Source: Escherichia phage vB_EcoM-813R1. From it: a stretch of 64,000 bases of DNA. The position numbers and the translations under genes are program-made. Shown here piece by piece: positions 1 through 36,323 of the stretch. The DNA lies in the sequence record ON470617.2. The stretch is one strand, 5' to 3'. The stretch's first letter is position 1. Each line of letters begins with the position of its first letter. The notes beneath the pieces are model-generated. The model was not told where the DNA came from. It saw only the letters and a list, made by a program, of their open reading frames with translations, and made no database searches.

Positions 1-988
1 GTGTACGCTGGCGGAACAGCAAGCACCTGACCGCCACGCCAGAGCTGCTTGTACTCAAGCTGGCGGCGCATTTCATACCAGCCCTGATCCAGTATCGAAC
101 GGTTTAAACCTGATTTTGCCCGGACATTGCGACCCGGATGACTTATCGTTCCCGCCGCTGACTTTGACATGTATTTAACCTTCAAATCCTCAATGACAAT
201 CATTGCGTGGTTTTTGCTGACGGTCGTTGTGACTTTGTGAAGGTAGTCCCTGCGGATATTTGCGATACGGGAATGCAGTCGCTGTATTTTGCGTTTCTGC
301 TTCTGCCAGTTGTTGCTGAATTTGACCTTGCGGCTTAACTGTCGCTGAAGTCTCGCCAGCTTCTTCTGGTTTTTCTGAAAACTATTTACAGGTTCAAAGA
401 CTGTGCCATCTGACAGCGTGGCGAGTTTAGCCACGCCAGCATCCAGTCCGACCATTGATGCTGAAGGGTGAACAGGAGTGGATACCTCTCTTTCTGTCTG
501 AATACTGATGTACCACTTACCGCAGGACTGGCTGACAGTAACATTTTTCACAATACCCGTGACCTGACGGCTATTCCGGTAGCGCATCCAGCCAAGTTTC
601 GGCAGAAAAATACGGCTGTTTTCCTGATCGAGCTTAACACCCTGCGGGTAGCGGAATGCATCATTCTGTCCCCGCTTTTTGAATCGGGGAAAAGCTGCCC
701 GATTCTGGAAGAAGTTTTTGTAAGCCCGCTCAAGGTCTTTCAGTGACTGTTGCAATGGCTGTGAGGGAGAATCTTTAAGCCATTCGGTTTCAGTGTCTTT
801 TTCCACTCAACCAACCAGGAAGCCATTTTCGTGTAAGGGATGTATTTTTTACCGGCCTCATGATTCTCATTCTGAAGCGCCAGAGCACGGTTGAAAACGA
901 AACGACAAGCTCCGGCAAAGCGCCTCATTTGATGCTCCTGTTGACCATCTGGTTTTAACCGGAATTTGAATGACACCTGTTGTTTCAT
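1..988 (-). mobile_element. tnpB: IS200/IS605-family TnpB (OrfB)-like gene, N-terminal ~330 codons; 3' end lies beyond window start; interrupted by in-frame stop at 740-742 and a frame change
   Basis: ORF 740..988 starts MKQQVSFKFRLKPDG...CRFVFNRAL (TnpB N-terminal signature); minus-strand translation of 300-420 in another frame reads ...SDGTVFEPVNSFQKNQKKLARLQRQLSRKVKFSNNWQK, typical TnpB. No tnpA seen. Confidence 0.7.
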
Positions 989-1086
989 GTCACTATTTTA
1001 AGCAAAAATAGCCGGGAGGAAAACTGTGCCTTATATCCCCACTATGAGGAGCGTAGGGGCGGCACATTGGATAAGGCGTAACAGGG

Positions 1087-4073
1087 ATGAGCTTAAGCGA
1101 TCAGGTGGTAATGGCCACCAGCATAGAAACGCTGATCGAGCTGCTAAAGAACCTGCCCGATTATGGGCGGGTTTCGTATGTGGTGACAGCGAAGGGAGAC
1201 GAGGTAAAAACAGCGTTTGATATCGTCGATGCCTCAGCTATTTTGGTATCCAATACTCTGGATGGGAAAATTAATCCTGACTATCCCCGGGAACTTCAGC
1301 CGCGCGACCGGACCCGCGCATCCAGCCTTCTTCAGGTTAACCAGATATCCAAAGATTTGCGGCCTGCTCAGCTTACCGATTCCGGATTATCCAGCCATGG
1401 CGCACCGATAATTGGTGAGGACAATGCAGTTGAGTCAGGTAATGGACGTACCATGGGGATCATTAAAGCCTATCAGGACGGTAATGCGGATCGGTATCGG
1501 GAGTACCTGATTGAACATGCGACCGAATTCGGCATACGTACTGAAAAGGTTGAATCAATGACGGCTCCGGTACTGGTGCGCCGCCGGTTAACGAAGGTTG
1601 ACCGCGTTCAGTTTGCCAAGGACTCAAATATTTCTGATCTTCAGGAAATGGCAGCCAGTGAAAAGGCTTTTGTTGATGCCGACAGCATAACACCGGCGAT
1701 GATGGCGCTGTTTAATCCGTCAGAAAGCGGAGATCTGCTTAGCCGCAGTAATGACGCGTTTATTCGCGGATTCATGACGCAAGTTGGTGCCACACAGGCT
1801 GCTGGCCTTGTAACGGAAGATGGGCGACCAACACGGCAACTTGTTGACCGTATACAAAACGCGATCTTTGCCAAGGCATATAAGGATGCGCGCCTGGTAA
1901 GGATGGTTGCAGAAGAACCTGATCCGGATATGCGTAATGTTCTGACGGCGCTTAATGCGGCAGCCAATGATTTTGTCCAGATGCAGGCTTTATCAGGAGA
2001 AGCGCACAAGCAGGCTGTGACAACTATTGTTGATGGCATTGAGACAGCGGATAGCCTCGATAAAAAGGCGCTGGCGGCATTGAAAGATGCGGTAGACCTG
2101 GTAAGGCAATCGAAGGAGTCAGGCCAGCATATTACCGATGTTATTGCTCAGGGGGATATGTTCAGCGAAACAGCCCCGGAAGTGAAAGCTCTCGCGTTGT
2201 TCATCGTCGCGAATAACCGTAGCGCGAAGCGTATGGCCACCGCCTTTAAATTGATGGCTCAACGTATCAATGATGAGTTACAGCACCAGGGCCAGGCGCT
2301 GGGGGATATGTTTGGCGGTGGTGATGTGTCGTTACAGGATATCCTTCGCCAGGTGTCTCAGGAACTGGAAAACGAAGGCATGCAAGGGATATCCGGCGGT
2401 CTTTTCGAGTCCGTTTCCGGCGGTAGTTACAACGGTGTTGCTCCATATACCAGCTTGCTATTACATCGGGCATCCGGCATCAAAGACATTATTCATCTGA
2501 TCAGGCTGCTTTCCCGTACAGATCCCCAGGATGAACAGCTTGTACAAGTGCTTGCGCATTTTGTTCGAATGCCTGTTGCCGACGTGAATAAATGGTGCCG
2601 ATTATTCGGTATCAGCAATTCGTTACTTCGCGGCTTGTTAAATCACGCATCCTCCCTTGGGCGCGATGGCTTTGACGAGATAGCGCAGGCGATAAAAAAC
2701 GGAGATATGCCACCAGCTATTGACTGGTTTTCCATTCGCCCAACCAGGGTGAAAGCATTCCTTAGCGCGGCGCATTCGGCATCACCATTGGCAGAAATGG
2801 TTCAGAGGTTGTCGCTCATATTCACAGACCATACCGCGTTGGGTGATCTGACTCTGGACGAGATGAAAGAAGCCTCCATTCAGTGGGCCGATCAACAAAA
2901 TGAGGTTAACTCAGACTTCTTGCCAGCATTCAGGAAGGCCGTTAGTAAAGCGGATGATGCCCGTGGAATTCTGAAGGCATTTAAGGCATTGCAAAGTCGT
3001 GTTAATAAACATGTCGGTGATATCGATGGGGTAACGGCGGAAGGCCGGGATATCCTTAAAGAGCACGGCATAACGCCAGAGTTTATTGATGAGATCAGGA
3101 CTGATATGCAGCGTGAGGTCGTATCGTCCCTGCAAATCGTAGCCAGAGCGTTGGCGGATGCTAATCCGAAGAGTGCGGCCATTGTTAACCGGGTTATTGG
3201 TGATATTGAAGCATCGGAGGGCATGGGGGCGCTGAAACTCTTCCTGTCGCGAGCGTTTAATCCTAACGGCAATATTCTCCTGGCATTATTGGTGAGGCTA
3301 AAAAGTATGTCAGTGAAGAAGAACTTGAGCAGCTTGACCAACTACTTAAGCGATTCTCATATAACCCGCAGACACGCTGGCAAATGAATCAGCGAAGTAT
3401 GGGTTCGGTCCACGAGAAAGTGTTATCTGCCATGAACAGTGCGATCGCAAACTCATCCGTATCTGAAGAAAAAGCTCTTGAGTGGGCCGACTCTTTTATC
3501 ACGGAAGAAGTGGAAGAAGCCCGCGCTGGACAGAATGGTGGGATAGACCTGCGCAAGGAACTTGCTGATATTTATCGCCTGACCGGCGGGAAAATATCGA
3601 CCTTATCAAAAGTGGTTCACCACCAGGGAAGGGCATATGCAAATCTAAATGGTGTTGTTGCTGTCAATTTGAACGATGAAAATGCAAGTGCACTGTGGCA
3701 CGAGCTGGGTCATCATCTTGAGTACAGTAACCCTGGTTTGTTAGAGAAAGCCCGGTCATTCCTGAAGGCCAATGTTGAAGGGGATAAGCCATCTTTCGTC
3801 AATATCGGTGGGCGTGGCAAGCCTGAATGGTGCTTCAGATCTCGATTGAGTAATATTTATATGGCGAAGGTATACCCGCCAGCCTCAGTAAGTAACACCG
3901 GGAAAATTCGGCAGAAATCACCGACTATTTCCAAAACGTCAGCAACGGAAGTATTCTCTATGGCTCTTCAGTTGTATCATGACAAAGAGGCCGCTGCCGC
4001 ATCACTGATGAATGGTGACGGATTGCTGGAACTGTTATTAGGTGTGGCAAAGGAGCTAAATAATGCAGATTAA
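1087..4073 (+). CDS. Very large multidomain protein (~995 aa) with N-terminal ParB/Srx-like motif and C-terminal HExxH metallopeptidase-like motif; split by an apparent frameshift near 3270-3390; lies where P1 has the distal darA-operon genes (ddrB region)
   Basis: ORFs 1087..3387 and 3384..4073. N-terminal INPDYPRELQPRDRTRASS resembles the ParB NPxxQPR box; ALWHELGHHLEY in the second ORF; the second ORF's frame reads through upstream as ...YSPGIIGEAKKYVSEEELEQL..., indicating one gene. Confidence 0.6.
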
Positions 4074-5496: not shown

Positions 5497-6397
5497 TTTC
5501 CACCTCTTCCGTGGTGTTTTCTTGCAGTTCTGTTAATGCAGCACGACATAGGTTCCGGGCATTGGCTATAGCCACACTTTTGACTTCATCCGTCATCGTG
5601 CAGGTAATGTACTGATCGAGTTCTTCAGCGCGGATGATGCTTTTGCCAATCAGAAACTGTATTTGCCATAGCAGATCGGCATCCATAATCAGAATTTCTG
5701 CCGGGCCTTCAGGGCCAGCCGGGAAGGAAACATAAGACTGTTTGCCCAGGCCGACAACTCGACAACTTGCTTCAAGAATTGCGCGCTTGAGGTCTGACTT
5801 TATAACGGAAACAGGTTGATTTTCACCAGTGATTACGCCGTTGACATGGAAAGGCATGTAGCTTGAAATACGCTCCACTTTCCACACGCCAGCAAGCGAT
5901 CCTTCATGCAGCACAATGGGGGTAACCGCGAGTTTCATCTCACCATATAACTGCTGGCAGATAGCTGGATTGCTGAATACATCTAAAGGCTCACATTCAA
6001 ACAGCGGCGCAATCTGCATGAGGTCCATCATGGTCATCCCTGGGGTACGAGCAGTAATGAATTTGCGCATACCAGTATCCATTGCGCTCCAGATTGCTAC
6101 ACCATGCTTTTTGCTCACTTCTTCAGTAAAGCCAAGGTGGCACATGATGGTTTTTTCGATAGCCAGATCGGAGATAGAAACCTTTTCGCCAGGTACACCA
6201 TCATTATTGATGGTCACTTCGACACTCTGGCCATTACGCAGGCGGTATTGAATTGTTTTAGTATTTTGTGCTGCCATAGTCTTTTCTCTGCTTAAAAACT
6301 GATGTATTGCGCCTTCAGGTGGGTCAGGAATGTTTTCCCACCAGCGAAAGCAATATCTCGGGGTGTTCTGTTCGTTAAAAACGCGTTCCATTGCCAA
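5489..6397 (-). CDS. Hypothetical protein (302 aa) translationally coupled to the terminase-like paralog
   Basis: Long ORF overlapping the downstream gene start by 8 nt; no recognisable motif; start may be the internal Met (MAAQNTK) at about 6280. Confidence 0.5.
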   Translation of the reverse strand: MAMERVFNEQNTPRYCFRWWENIPDPPEGAIHQFLSREKTMAAQNTKTIQYRLRNGQSVEVTINNDGVPGEKVSISDLAIEKTIMCHLGFTEEVSKKHGVAIWSAMDTGMRKFITARTPGMTMMDLMQIAPLFECEPLDVFSNPAICQQLYGEMKLAVTPIVLHEGSLAGVWKVERISSYMPFHVNGVITGENQPVSVIKSDLKRAILEASCRVVGLGKQSYVSFPAGPEGPAEILIMDADLLWQIQFLIGKSIIRAEELDQYITCTMTDEVKSVAIANARNLCRAALTELQENTTEEVESD

Positions 6398-6474
6398 CTT
6401 TGGCGTTTTTTAGCGAGTTCGTGCTTTTGTTGGCGTTTGGACCACCGCTTTTCTTTCAGTCGTTTTTTACTCAT
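6292..6474 (-). CDS. Possible small basic protein (60 aa), uncertain
   Basis: ORF MSKKRLKEKRWSKRQQKHELAKKRQ... directly downstream of ssb; overlaps the annotated start of the 302-aa gene, so one of the two starts is wrong. Confidence 0.3.
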   Translation of the reverse strand: MSKKRLKEKRWSKRQQKHELAKKRQSWQWNAFLTNRTPRDIAFAGGKTFLTHLKAQYISF

Positions 6475-6479
6475 AAACT

Positions 6480-6968
6480 CTAAAACGGAATATCGTCTTC
6501 AAAGTCCATTGGAGGTTCGTTATTGGCGCTGCTCTGAGGTTTGCCACCACCGCTGTATTGCTGGTGGTTTTGAGGTTGGTTTGACTGCCCCCAGCCATTT
6601 GAGGACTGTGAATCGTCGCGGCGAGCGCCGATCATTTGCATGGTGCCGCCCTGGCTGACGATAATTTCCGTCGTGTAACGTTCTACACCGGCGTCATCTG
6701 CCCACTTACGGGTTTTAAGTTTCCCTTCGATGTAGACCTGAGAACCTTTTCGTAAATACTCACTCGCAATTTCAGCAAGTTTTCCGAACAAAACGACTTT
6801 ATGCCATTCTGTTTGCTCTTTCTGTTGGCCCGTTTGCTTGTCGCGCCATGATTCATTCGTTGCGATGCTGAGTCTTCCGACCGCGCCGCCATTTGGTATA
6901 TACCTGATCTCCGGGTCTTGCCCCAGGGTGCCAATCAGGATGACTTTGTTTACACCGCGTTGTGCCAC
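6480..6968 (-). CDS. ssb: Single-stranded DNA-binding protein
   Basis: 162 aa, OB-fold SSB sequence with Gly/Gln-rich linker and acidic tail ending MDFEDDIPF. Confidence 0.95.
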
Positions 6969-6988
6969 TTATCTTACCTAATAAAATA

Positions 6989-7005
6989 AATTAATTAGAG
7001 CAATA
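6989..7005. promoter_or_regulatory. C1 repressor operator-like site between divergent ssb and lyz
   Basis: AAATTAATTAGAGCAAT; reverse complement ATTGCTCTAATTAATTT, one mismatch to the P1 operator consensus ATTGCTCTAATAAATTT. Confidence 0.6.
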
Positions 7006-7137
7006 ATGTATATCTTTGAAACGTAGCTAACAAGTGATTTGCATTATCCTGTGCCTTCTAAAGGGATCGAGTCAGTCGGTATTGGCTGTGAATGGGTGTT
7101 TGTCCTGGAGCGTAAAAAATTCGCTTATGAGGTCTTT

Positions 7138-34412: not shown

Positions 34413-35051
34413 TTGCGTAACGACTATTATTTAACCAGCAAAGTAACTTTTAATTTTTTTTCTTTTCCCATTGATTTTTGTGCACAGCTTATCTGCCTTG
34501 CCGTGCGCAGAATCAACTTTTTTCTTCCTGATTTATCCACAAAGTTATGCACTTGCAAGAGGGCCATTTTCTAAATATTGTGATGTTTCACAAATGAAAT
34601 GAATTTTGATTAATGAAGATAAGGAGAAAATTTGAGATGCAATCATGACGTTAATAGATAGGGTCTGCATTACAGACCCCATCCGCATCAAGGAATTAGC
34701 CGTTCCCTGATGTTGTTCCGAAAACATGTGCCGTAAGCTCACGTTAACGACTTTCTTTCACCGAATCCAACTATATAGGGGTTGGGTTTCTACGTCAACG
34801 TGAGCAAGTGCTCCTTTACATTTGACAAGGAACCACCTTAATGACTGCTTTTTTCAGTTCCTGAGTGCATTTTTAGATGCGCCTGTTATTAGCCAGATTC
34901 TGGCGATCATCCTCATCATCGTTTTGATTTTGCTTTTAAGGTCAGTAAAAAATGGAATTATGCACTGGCTTACTTAATGTTCAGTGAAACATTAAAATCT
35001 CCTTGATGTGGAAACAATCATTTTCTGTATGTGCTGGTGGGTACCTGTAGT

Positions 35052-35414
35052 TCAGCTTTCGTTGGCATTTAACTTCGTCTTTGCTTTCTCCACCAGCAAC
35101 TTCCAGATGCCTATTTCATTAGCAGCCGCCTTGATGGCGGCATAAAAAGCATCTTGCTGATCGTAACGCTGAATCTGTTTTTTCAGTTTTGCCTCCACCA
35201 ATTTAATTTCATTACGTGCTTTCTGAAGCCGCAGCGCCGCCCGGTTACGTCTGTTCTTGTATAGCGCGTTAATCTCTGATAATTGCTTTAATTTACCAGC
35301 CTGACTGCGGATTATCGCCTCTCTGACTTCTGCCGTGCGTCTCATCTGATCTCTTAAGAGTTCACCGTTTTCGATAATTCTTTCAAGGTGTTTGATGTGA
35401 TCTGCAACTCTCAT
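35052..35414 (-). CDS. Hypothetical coiled-coil protein (120 aa)
   Basis: ORF, heptad-rich; first gene of a long minus-strand accessory block. Confidence 0.4.
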   Translation of the reverse strand: MRVADHIKHLERIIENGELLRDQMRRTAEVREAIIRSQAGKLKQLSEINALYKNRRNRAALRLQKARNEIKLVEAKLKKQIQRYDQQDAFYAAIKAAANEIGIWKLLVEKAKTKLNANES

Positions 35415-36190
35415 ACTTCACCCTCGCTTGTATCGCCAGCATCCACCAGCGGCAATAAAGCCCTGGCCATCTTATGAACCAATAGTGCATCAATAATGCC
35501 AAGCGTATGCCCCGGCTTAATGTTTAATGCCGCCTCAAGGTGACACCTTTCCAGGCCACTTTTCTCGGCTTGTTTATGATGATCTGGTGTAATAACGTCG
35601 CCCAAAACACGGCTAATTCTTTCTCGTAATTGCTGGGTGCCAGCACACTTGATCGCTGTATCGTGGAGACGGTTAACCAGTTCGCGATAAACATGCGGCT
35701 TAATTCGGATACGTTCACCGGTGACGCCCTTTCCTGGTGCTGGCACCGAACTATCCGGAATATCCGGATAGTTGCCAGCCTCGTAAGCTACCCGCAGCCA
35801 GTGCATGAATGTTTCAGTGGACACACAACCACAGTCCACATCGATTTTCCCGCGTTGCTGTTCCAGCCATTGCCCAAAATCCAACCTGTAAGTCTTACTT
35901 TCAAGTTCATCACCATTGAACTCGACTTTCTGCGACGCTATGAGAGCTGATTCGTATTGTTCGCGAGTGACAACTGACTGGTATTCATCGCTATCAAGGT
36001 CACCAATTGGAAGCTCAATCTCACAACAAAAATTGCGCCCAAAGAAAGTGTCTTTTTTGTGGTCTGAGCCAAAAGCAAAAGTCGCGCATGGTGCCATTAA
36101 ATTGACACTGGGTAGGTAACAATAACTCATTCCATCAGGCCACCCGCCGCACTTAGGCAGTTCCTTCACTAACAAGTCGATAAACTTCAT
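35411..36190 (-). CDS. Hypothetical protein (259 aa), Cys-rich N-terminus
   Basis: ORF overlapping the downstream gene by 4 nt. Confidence 0.5.
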   Translation of the reverse strand: MKFIDLLVKELPKCGGWPDGMSYCYLPSVNLMAPCATFAFGSDHKKDTFFGRNFCCEIELPIGDLDSDEYQSVVTREQYESALIASQKVEFNGDELESKTYRLDFGQWLEQQRGKIDVDCGCVSTETFMHWLRVAYEAGNYPDIPDSSVPAPGKGVTGERIRIKPHVYRELVNRLHDTAIKCAGTQQLRERISRVLGDVITPDHHKQAEKSGLERCHLEAALNIKPGHTLGIIDALLVHKMARALLPLVDAGDTSEGEV

Positions 36191-36323
36191 TTTTTATCAT
36201 CTTTGCAAGCCGCCAAAGCCATTTGGGCAAGTGCCAATACTTCATCTGCCGTATATCCAGCACCGTGACCATACATTTCGATACGGGAAATAATCTCTGA
36301 TATACGCTCTTCAGTGATTCTGG

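Follow-up and report, generated by a model that had tools for sequence, protein, structure and literature searches.

The 64,000-nucleotide stretch analysed here (the window) belongs to a P1-like IncY phage-plasmid, and its left edge holds most of an IS609-type insertion of the IS200/IS605 family that bears tnpB and lacks tnpA. The complete insertion measured 1,335 bp, and window positions 1-1070 (minus strand) represented its left four fifths. It was situated antisense, exactly between ddrA and ddrB, within the operon lydA-lydB-hdf-darA-ddrA-ddrB. We consider it highly probable that the insertion is a tnpA-less IS609 derivative which entered this site once, that it encodes an intact TnpB with a guide directed against empty junctions, and that the frameshift present in the window copy is artefactual. 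The finding is real but ordinary, as the element was already known and is nothing new in kind. The features located in the window are listed in Table 1.

Table 1. Features of the IS609-type insertion and its flank, in window coordinates
Feature	Position	Strand	Basis
tnpB CDS, residues 1-329 of 402	1..988	-	ATG 988-986; translations, Pfam, ISDra2 TnpB alignment
T5 homopolymer (A5 on coding strand)	798..802	.	T6 in RCS47, pCREC-629_2, pEC-16-35-3 and SJ46
Left end (LE) and tnpB 5' leader	989..1070	-	compared with complete IS609 copies
TTAT target site / transposon-adjacent motif (TAM)	1071..1074	-	directly 5' of LE; empty versus occupied site
ddrB, flanking host gene, 995 aa in relatives	1087..4073	+	ORF list; RCS47 and pCREC-629_2 annotation; alignment

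Boundaries, end defects and distribution of the tnpA-less element

Window positions 1-1086 were 99.7-99.8% identical to genes annotated as insQ or RNA-guided endonuclease TnpB (the RefSeq name of the protein) in RCS47 and many E. coli plasmids. The copy of RCS47 was 99.7% identical to the window, and that of the Salmonella phage SJ46 96.8%. The insertion is by no means unusual in the phage group. Dozens of RefSeq plasmids, like RCS47 and SJ46, have an annotated insQ/TnpB; the copies of both phages and of the E. coli plasmids occupy the ddrA/ddrB site in the orientation seen here, and IS609 was described in plasmids of the P1-like type in 2019 (PMC6906374). The remarks of the preliminary description of this DNA on the genomic context were borne out. 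A tnpB gene of the IS200/IS605 family does adjoin the darA operon, as indicated by the Pfam domains, the match to ISDra2 TnpB and the ddrA/ddrB context; reference P1 does not carry the element, its site, like that of P7, being empty; and the junction is variable, as it was found to be polymorphic among P1-like plasmids.

When the occupied site was compared with the empty site of P1/P7, the sole difference between the sequences was the 1,335-bp element inserted after TTAT. In the empty site, GAGGCAGC was followed directly by ATAAGGCGTAACAGGGATG, and the flank to the right of the junction began with ATAAGGCG. In the occupied site, GAGGCAGC was followed by the element, running from GTGACATCC to CACATTGG, and then by ATAAGGCG. 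Read in the orientation of the element, the order was TTAT, the LE starting with CCAATGTG, tnpB, the terminal GGAGGATGTCAC and the flank GCTGCC. Consistently, the alignment of IS-less plasmids to the window began at position 1071. The element therefore reached beyond positions 1-988, to which the preliminary description had confined it, with the LE tip at 1070, TTAT at 1071-1074 and ddrB starting from 1087. The search for a target-site signature that had been advised there thus yielded TTAT and no duplication. The absence of a target-site duplication and of terminal inverted repeats, together with insertion 3' of a fixed TTAT, agreed with membership in the IS609 group of the IS200/IS605 family. 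Among 23 distinct insertions of the IS609 family, 17 were flanked by TTAT and four by TTAC; TTAT is the target of this family.

As had also been advised, the sequence was extended leftward via sister plasmids, which recovered the 3' end of tnpB together with the right end (RE); both boundaries of the element were sharply defined. The RE boundary is solid because the homology of 36 non-identical relatives (spanning Escherichia, Citrobacter, Serratia, Morganella, Photorhabdus, Xenorhabdus, Brenneria and others) stopped at GTCAA (...GGAGGATGTCAA), beyond which unrelated flanking DNA followed. The absence of IS ends, which would have spoken against an insertion of this kind, was thus not observed, though the ends deviated from the family consensus. 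Only 82 nt separated the LE tip from the tnpB ATG, and the recommended search for tnpA (tblastn with IS609 TnpA) returned no match in the window, i.e., no Y1 (HUH) transposase. In a sampled 50 kb of a sister plasmid, the same protein matched only marginally, with 36% identity along 44 residues (E = 0.001). Members of the IS200/IS605 family that possess tnpB only are known (the IS1341 group).

The outer stem of LE (GTGCC...GGCAC) was kept. The canonical inner TnpA-binding hairpin of the IS609 LE, CCCCGTCC TTCA GGGCGGGG, was replaced by a weak and irregular hairpin with a DNA folding energy of -6.9 kcal/mol (z -0.3), versus -15.1 kcal/mol (z -2.1) for the IS609 LE. The RE hairpin, CCACGCCC-TTCG-GGGCGTGG, was strong (-12.4 kcal/mol, z -2.6). 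The tip of RE read TCAC in RCS47, pEC-16-35-3 and SJ46 versus TCAA in all 36 relatives, the terminal C being specific to P1-like copies among those compared. Because TnpA is absent, transposition in cis is probably no longer possible, and transposition in trans appears doubtful, given the degraded hairpin of LE and the change of the RE cleavage site to TCAC.

In the reference P1 and P7, which lack the element, ddrA and ddrB were spaced by 12 nt. The insertion split the final Ala codon of ddrA; RE supplied a new G followed by TGA, so that the DdrA protein was unchanged. A 56-nt query representing the empty junction was contiguous in 383 of the 459 P1-like plasmids of PLSDB and split in 76, and a 612-nt query was contiguous in 355 of 469. 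Most of these non-contiguous sites (approximately 17-24%) were occupied, a few being merely partial matches, and approximately 17% of P1-like plasmids in PLSDB carried the element.

The first 103 nt of the P1-like element (LE and the first five codons of tnpB) constituted a diverged variant, unlike the corresponding part of IS609, and were just 77-81% similar to other plasmid-borne members of the family. This LE variant was present in 64 of 5,426 complete E. coli genomes at an identity of at least 95%, and all of its matches taken together were located in 111 places on plasmids and two on chromosomes. The distribution is consistent with one insertion inherited in one plasmid lineage, not with an actively hopping element. 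According to the scheme that we favour, a single insertion in the ancestor of one P1-like IncY phage-plasmid lineage would have placed the element 3' of TTAT, in the interval from the last codon of ddrA to the ddrB ribosome-binding site. Independent insertions in RCS47 and SJ46 were considered and rejected, as both copies lack tnpA, carry the unusual variant of LE and end in TCAC.

Between RCS47 and pEC-16-35-3, the element differed at one to two positions per 1,335 nt and the flanks at 4-13 positions per 500 nt. Such low divergence of the IS relative to its flanks fits spread of the IS allele among backbones and, equally well, flanks made mosaic by recombination with relatives that lack the IS. 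It was therefore rejected as proof of drive, since mosaic flank recombination gives the same pattern.

TnpB, its predicted guide RNA and the retention of the element

The tnpB gene was cut by the edge of the window, leaving the C-terminal 73 residues to the left of it. The codons of the RuvC residues D183 (443-441) and E267 (191-189) were inside the window; the third RuvC Asp (D363) and the CxxC...CxxC zinc finger were encoded outside it, to its left. In the intact 402-aa homologue, Pfam searches identified OrfB_IS605 (1.5e-34), Cas12f1-like TNB (2.4e-24) and HTH_OrfB_IS605 (1.6e-16), all three exceeding the curated cut-offs, which placed the protein among TnpB proteins. The structures of ISDra2 TnpB (8EXA, 8H1J) were matched over the full length with E = 9e-52. 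Residues D191/E278/D361 of ISDra2 aligned to D183/E267/D363, and both CxxC pairs were present. The RuvC Asp-Glu-Asp triad and the zinc finger that characterize RNA-guided nucleases were thus both found, D363 and the finger by way of the intact homologue. The kept triad and zinc finger predict that the TnpB of this element is catalytically intact.

The tnpB gene was intact in RCS47, SJ46, pCREC-629_2 and pEC-16-35-3. RCS47 and SJ46 differed at approximately 24 synonymous and 18 non-synonymous positions of the gene (dS 0.098). The resulting dN/dS of approximately 0.2 suggests purifying selection on tnpB without a resident transposase, although gene conversion from functional IS609 copies on chromosomes may account for part of the low value, by importing variation that had already been filtered.

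The preliminary description had rightly placed the guide RNA just outside the window. The guide-RNA region took up the final ~215 nt of the element, ending ~50 nt left of window position 1. None of the structured RNA was inside the window, and it was analysed on the extended sequence of sister plasmids. A search of the extended locus against Rfam at E ≤ 1 gave no match above the gathering score. Three sub-threshold matches on the tnpB-sense strand, namely RAGATH-18 (28.1 bits, E 0.012), HgcC (22.6) and sot0042 (17.8 bits), were stacked over its terminal ~180 nt. HgcC and sot RNAs overlap the 3' ends of tnpB genes in archaea. RAGATH-18 RNAs have been identified as guide RNAs of TnpB nucleases (PMC11061315).

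The structure was evaluated on an alignment of the last 215 nt of the 36 relatives. The RNAalifold consensus comprised 46 pairs in eight helices, with 97.3% of the cells paired. Compensatory double changes occurred at 10 pairs and involved 62 cells, versus 19.5 +/- 5.7 in column shuffles; when the partners were slid by 1-3 columns as a control, 3-12 compensatory cells were counted. Several of the covarying positions fell on synonymous sites in the codons for the C-terminus of TnpB. All RNA helices were retained in the P1-like copy. The covariation argues for an RNA structure that is shared by the family, and in the sister plasmids the sense-strand scaffold overlapped RE and the 3' end of tnpB. 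The check by RNA models that the preliminary description had called for was thus answered in two ways: a covariation-supported structure was obtained from the relatives, and every match in Rfam itself was below threshold.

Guide RNAs of TnpB are read out of RE into the flanking DNA (Meers et al., 10.1101/2023.03.14.532601). The DNA flanking RE, and thus the predicted guide, was GCTGCCTCTTTAATGT, antisense to the 3' end of ddrA. The 22-nt flank GCTGCCTCTTTAATGTTGGCGG directly followed TTAT in P1 and P7 and directly followed the RE tip in RCS47 and pEC-16-35-3. The predicted guide therefore matched a TAM-flanked site in the IS-free homologues, and in the occupied plasmids TTAT was 1.3 kb away from the guide-matching flank. 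This geometry of guide and target, read from the aligned sites, is what the activity proposed below would require. Promoter and terminator scans gave counts that were not above those of shuffles. A terminator-like hairpin was noted directly after the predicted guide.

In the mechanism that we propose, the omega/reRNA scaffold would be formed by the tnpB 3' end and RE, and its transcript would run on into the flank to acquire the guide. The terminal C of RE, which is A in the relatives, lies where scaffold and guide would join and may affect this step. TnpB and this RNA would cut P1-like genomes in which TTAT and GCTGCCTCTTTAATGT are uninterrupted (P1, P7 and approximately 80% of P1-like plasmids), the predicted target with its TAM being TTAT followed by GCTGCCTCTTTAATGTTGGC. 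The occupied locus would be immune because LE lies between the TAM and the target. Cleavage would favour the IS-bearing copies, either by homing or by plasmid drive. RNA-guided cleavage of IS-free P1-like genomes is, in our analysis, the most likely activity of the system, and we infer that both TnpB and the guide RNA are expressed. There is precedent for both routes with other TnpB elements: TnpB-guided cleavage of empty sites followed by homing, in chromosomes (Meers et al., 10.1101/2023.03.14.532601), and a TnpB-dependent drive by which plasmids bearing the IS are favoured (Mears et al., PMC11870625).

TnpB and its guide RNA could further be directed, as a weapon or as a drive, at P1-like relatives that lack the IS, which would explain why the element has been retained. 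An incoming or co-resident genome of the P1/P7 type would then be cut at the ddrA/ddrB junction and either destroyed or recombined to the IS-bearing allele. We put this forward tentatively and would not expect it to be the true explanation. Most of the empty sites kept a perfect or near-perfect target. Speaking against a strong drive, the element has apparently resided in this group for long, yet only ~17% of P1-like plasmids are occupied and the targets have not been eroded.

A different explanation of the retention would be that the insertion is an inert passenger, the dead and harmless relic of one old transposition, with TnpB and its RNA idle in P1-like plasmids. We judge this rather unlikely. 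A relic would be expected to look much as the element does in its transposition functions (tnpA absent, LE hairpin degraded, RE cleavage site mutated), and the minority of occupied sites, the perfect targets at most empty ones and the LE variant essentially confined to one site all agree with it. The coding and RNA parts have a different appearance: none of the polished relatives examined had a broken tnpB ORF, the catalytic residues and the zinc finger were kept, the RNA helices were all preserved in the P1-like copy, and dN/dS was low over a dS of approximately 0.1 between the SJ46 and RCS47 lineages.

Domestication into a regulator, with a TnpB-RNA complex or an antisense RNA modulating ddrA/ddrB in the manner of TldR, which is nuclease-dead, is very unlikely. 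The element is fixed at one site in the operon, antisense and without a transposase, its predicted guide could pair with the 3' end of ddrA, and domestication of TnpB into RNA-guided transcription factors is documented (PMC10705468). However, the RuvC D-E-D triad is intact, unlike that of TldR, the DNA target of the guide on the resident plasmid lacks a TAM, and the protein has the length and domain set of an ordinary IS609 TnpB, to which it is ~92% identical. Membership in the TldR group itself was rejected, as the triad was intact and the protein was of full length (402 aa), with no C-terminal truncation.

The apparent frameshift in the window copy

As written, the reading frame of the window copy was broken at the T5 run at 798-802, which led to a frame change and a downstream stop at 740-742, tnpB continuing in another frame from approximately residue 64. 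The interruption noted in the preliminary description is thus present in the sequence as given, and the comparison with pEC-16-35-3 speaks against its being a real one. In tblastn, residues 63-329 were 99.6% identical to RCS47 TnpB at the protein level, and window positions 1-988 differed from the copies of pEC-16-35-3 and pCREC-629_2 by only one missing T. Relative to RCS47 and pCREC-629_2, the first 4.1 kb contained three one-base deletions, all of them homopolymeric. The G run of LE at 1056-1059 was G4 versus G5 in relatives, and the reduction of CCC to CC near 3278 split ddrB into ORFs of 766 and 229 aa.

The whole 64-kb window was collinear with pEC-16-35-3, with six mismatches, three insertions and 56 one-base deletions. 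Of the deletions, 55 were located in runs of at least three nucleotides and 41 in runs of at least five, where only 2.5% of the bases lie; the density of homopolymer deletions in the assembly was approximately one per 1.1 kb. One-directional homopolymer deletions with nearly no substitutions are what errors in an uncorrected long-read assembly typically look like. In tnpB, both the frameshift and the stop are almost certainly a sequencing or assembly artefact, because the missing T is one of 56 homopolymer deletions set against six mismatches. That a real slippage deletion in the A6 run made the tnpB of this plasmid a true pseudogene is extremely unlikely: the frameshift and the stop do stand in the given sequence, and homopolymer slippage is also a genuine mutational route, but deletions of the same kind (55 of 56 homopolymeric, versus three insertions and six substitutions) likewise break ddrB and other genes, a spectrum that is typical of an uncorrected long-read assembly and not of evolution. 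Taken at face value, the frameshift would mislabel tnpB, and also ddrB, as pseudogenes.

Comparison with known systems

Copies 90-96% identical to element positions 104-1338 were present in 5,015 of 5,426 complete E. coli genomes. Three of these copies were inspected and proved to be IS609, with a divergently transcribed 143-aa tnpA between LE and tnpB, TTAT directly 5' of LE and an RE ending in ...GGAGGATGTCAA. The P1-like element resembled IS609 in its tnpB and RE (~95% DNA identity), in its TnpB protein (91-93%), in the TTAT target, in the RE hairpin, in the ...GGAGGATGTCA terminus and in the lack of target duplication. In contrast to IS609, it had no tnpA, its LE hairpin was degraded and the last base of RE was C instead of A.

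Among P1-like plasmids, Venturini et al. 2019 (PMC6906374) reported IS609 of ~1,340 bp in pJIE250-3, with the cleavage sites TTAT/TCAA, and an IS609-like sequence in pSvP1. Compared by published description, the element of pJIE250-3 agreed with ours in its length of ~1,340 bp and in the left cleavage site TTAT, and differed in its right cleavage site, TCAA in the report versus TCAC in RCS47, SJ46 and pEC-16-35-3. Relative to RCS47 and SJ46, only the window copy showed a frameshift, which we judged to be an artefact.

The TnpB of ISDra2 (Deinococcus radiodurans), which has been characterized both structurally and biochemically, agrees with the present one in the order of its domains, the RuvC triad and the zinc finger, and its guide RNA (reRNA) is likewise encoded at the tnpB 3' end and RE. 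In contrast to ISDra2, the protein studied here contained an insertion of ~15 residues after the RuvC Glu, and TnpA was absent from the element. The TAM of ISDra2 is TTGAT, versus TTAT here.

Literature searches returned nothing specific on TnpB function in P1-like or other phage-plasmids. The TnpB of 'IS609' was purified in one paper, which gave no details bearing on the P1-like element. The arrangement is a neat case, found in nature, of a TnpB element in which the intact nuclease ORF and the guide-RNA scaffold have outlasted the transposase, and whose guide points at the allele borne by most relatives.

The likeness to TnpB homing and plasmid drive lies in the guide, which corresponds to the RE-flanking DNA, in the IS-free homologues, which carry both TAM and target, and in the carrier, a plasmid that encounters related plasmids and phages free of the IS. 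Unlike in the work on TnpB homing, TnpA is absent here, so that a role in retention after excision is not applicable. P1 prophages are maintained at low copy number. The published advantage of plasmid drive mattered most at high copy number (PMC11870625). Should TnpB indeed serve as a weapon, the phage-plasmid would carry a means of RNA-guided exclusion between phages; if active, the element would be a natural counterpart of the laboratory plasmid gene drive, operating between temperate phage-plasmids by which resistance genes are spread.

The insertion sequence and its flanks in related backbones

The 1,335-bp tnpA-less IS609-type element between ddrA and ddrB was compared between the RCS47 (L001 2034-10405) and pEC-16-35-3 (L005) backbones, and differed at only 1-2 of its 1,335 nt, against a divergence of 1-2.6% in the flanking darA, ddrA and ddrB. 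Such a near-identical IS in diverged flanks points to either mosaic recombination of the flanks or a recent spread of the IS allele. The loop of the hairpin in the right end (RE) was inverted between SJ46 and RCS47 (CCACGCCC-TTCG-GGGCGTGG against CCACACCC-CGAA-GGGCGTGG in element orientation). The stem was retained, and the change resembles an inversion caused by template switching at a palindromic sequence. A terminator-like hairpin was located in RCS47 directly after the predicted 16-nt guide, approximately 280 nt to the left of window position 1 and within the ddrA antisense sequence. The number of terminator-like sites in the region was not above that in shuffles, and this hairpin may therefore be a chance occurrence.

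Coordinates of the features
Feature	Location	Strand	Remark
tnpA-less IS609-family tnpB copy	L009 (NZ_CP028585.2 p1_000533) 2463-3804		E. coli plasmid
tnpA-less IS609-family tnpB copy	L010 (NZ_CP018112.1) 2501-3802		E. coli plasmid
RE hairpin	SJ46 (L091) 1240-1265; RCS47 (L001) 5745-5770		pairwise comparison
Terminator-like hairpin with T-rich tail	RCS47 (L001) 5721-5701	minus	TGGCGGCTATCCATGCCGCCG TGTGCTGTTT
Deletion sites (examples)	window 798-802, 1056-1059, ~3278, 4495, 11631, 19450, 24735, 40271		versus pEC-16-35-3
tRNA genes	window 54939-55014, 57014-57089, 57092-57167	minus	anticodons CAT (called Met), TGT (Thr), GTT (Asn)

Single-base differences and tRNA genes in the window

Compared with pEC-16-35-3, the window as a whole lacks one base at each of 56 positions, almost always within a homopolymer, but shows only 6 mismatches and 3 inserted bases. 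We suspect assembly error behind frameshifts and split genes anywhere in the window, e.g., ddrB, which is present as two pieces (1087-3387 and 3384-4073). The inserted bases were confined to an additional C within a C run at 53016 and a CA dinucleotide at 51187-51188, the latter not being a homopolymer error and possibly representing a real difference. P1 likewise has a small set of tRNA genes, and the three encoded in the window thus look like ordinary content of a P1-like backbone.

Related tnpB copies in phages and plasmids

Copies of tnpB were also present in other phage records. The 8.4-kb record of the filamentous phage If1 (U02303.1 / NC_001954.1) contains a fragment with 95-96% identity (6409-7055), annotated as ORF348, and Morganella phage IME1369_01 (KY653118.1) carries a nearly full-length copy at 34971-36205, annotated as 'putative virulence protein'. 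The insertion sites of the two tnpA-less plasmid copies (L009 and L010) differ from that of the ddrA/ddrB element, and one of these copies has a canonical left end and a 66-bp remnant of tnpA. These plasmids bear phage-type genes (ead/Ea22-like, DUF968 and metallophosphoesterase). Phage-plasmids may thus repeatedly have come to carry TnpB elements that lack a transposase.
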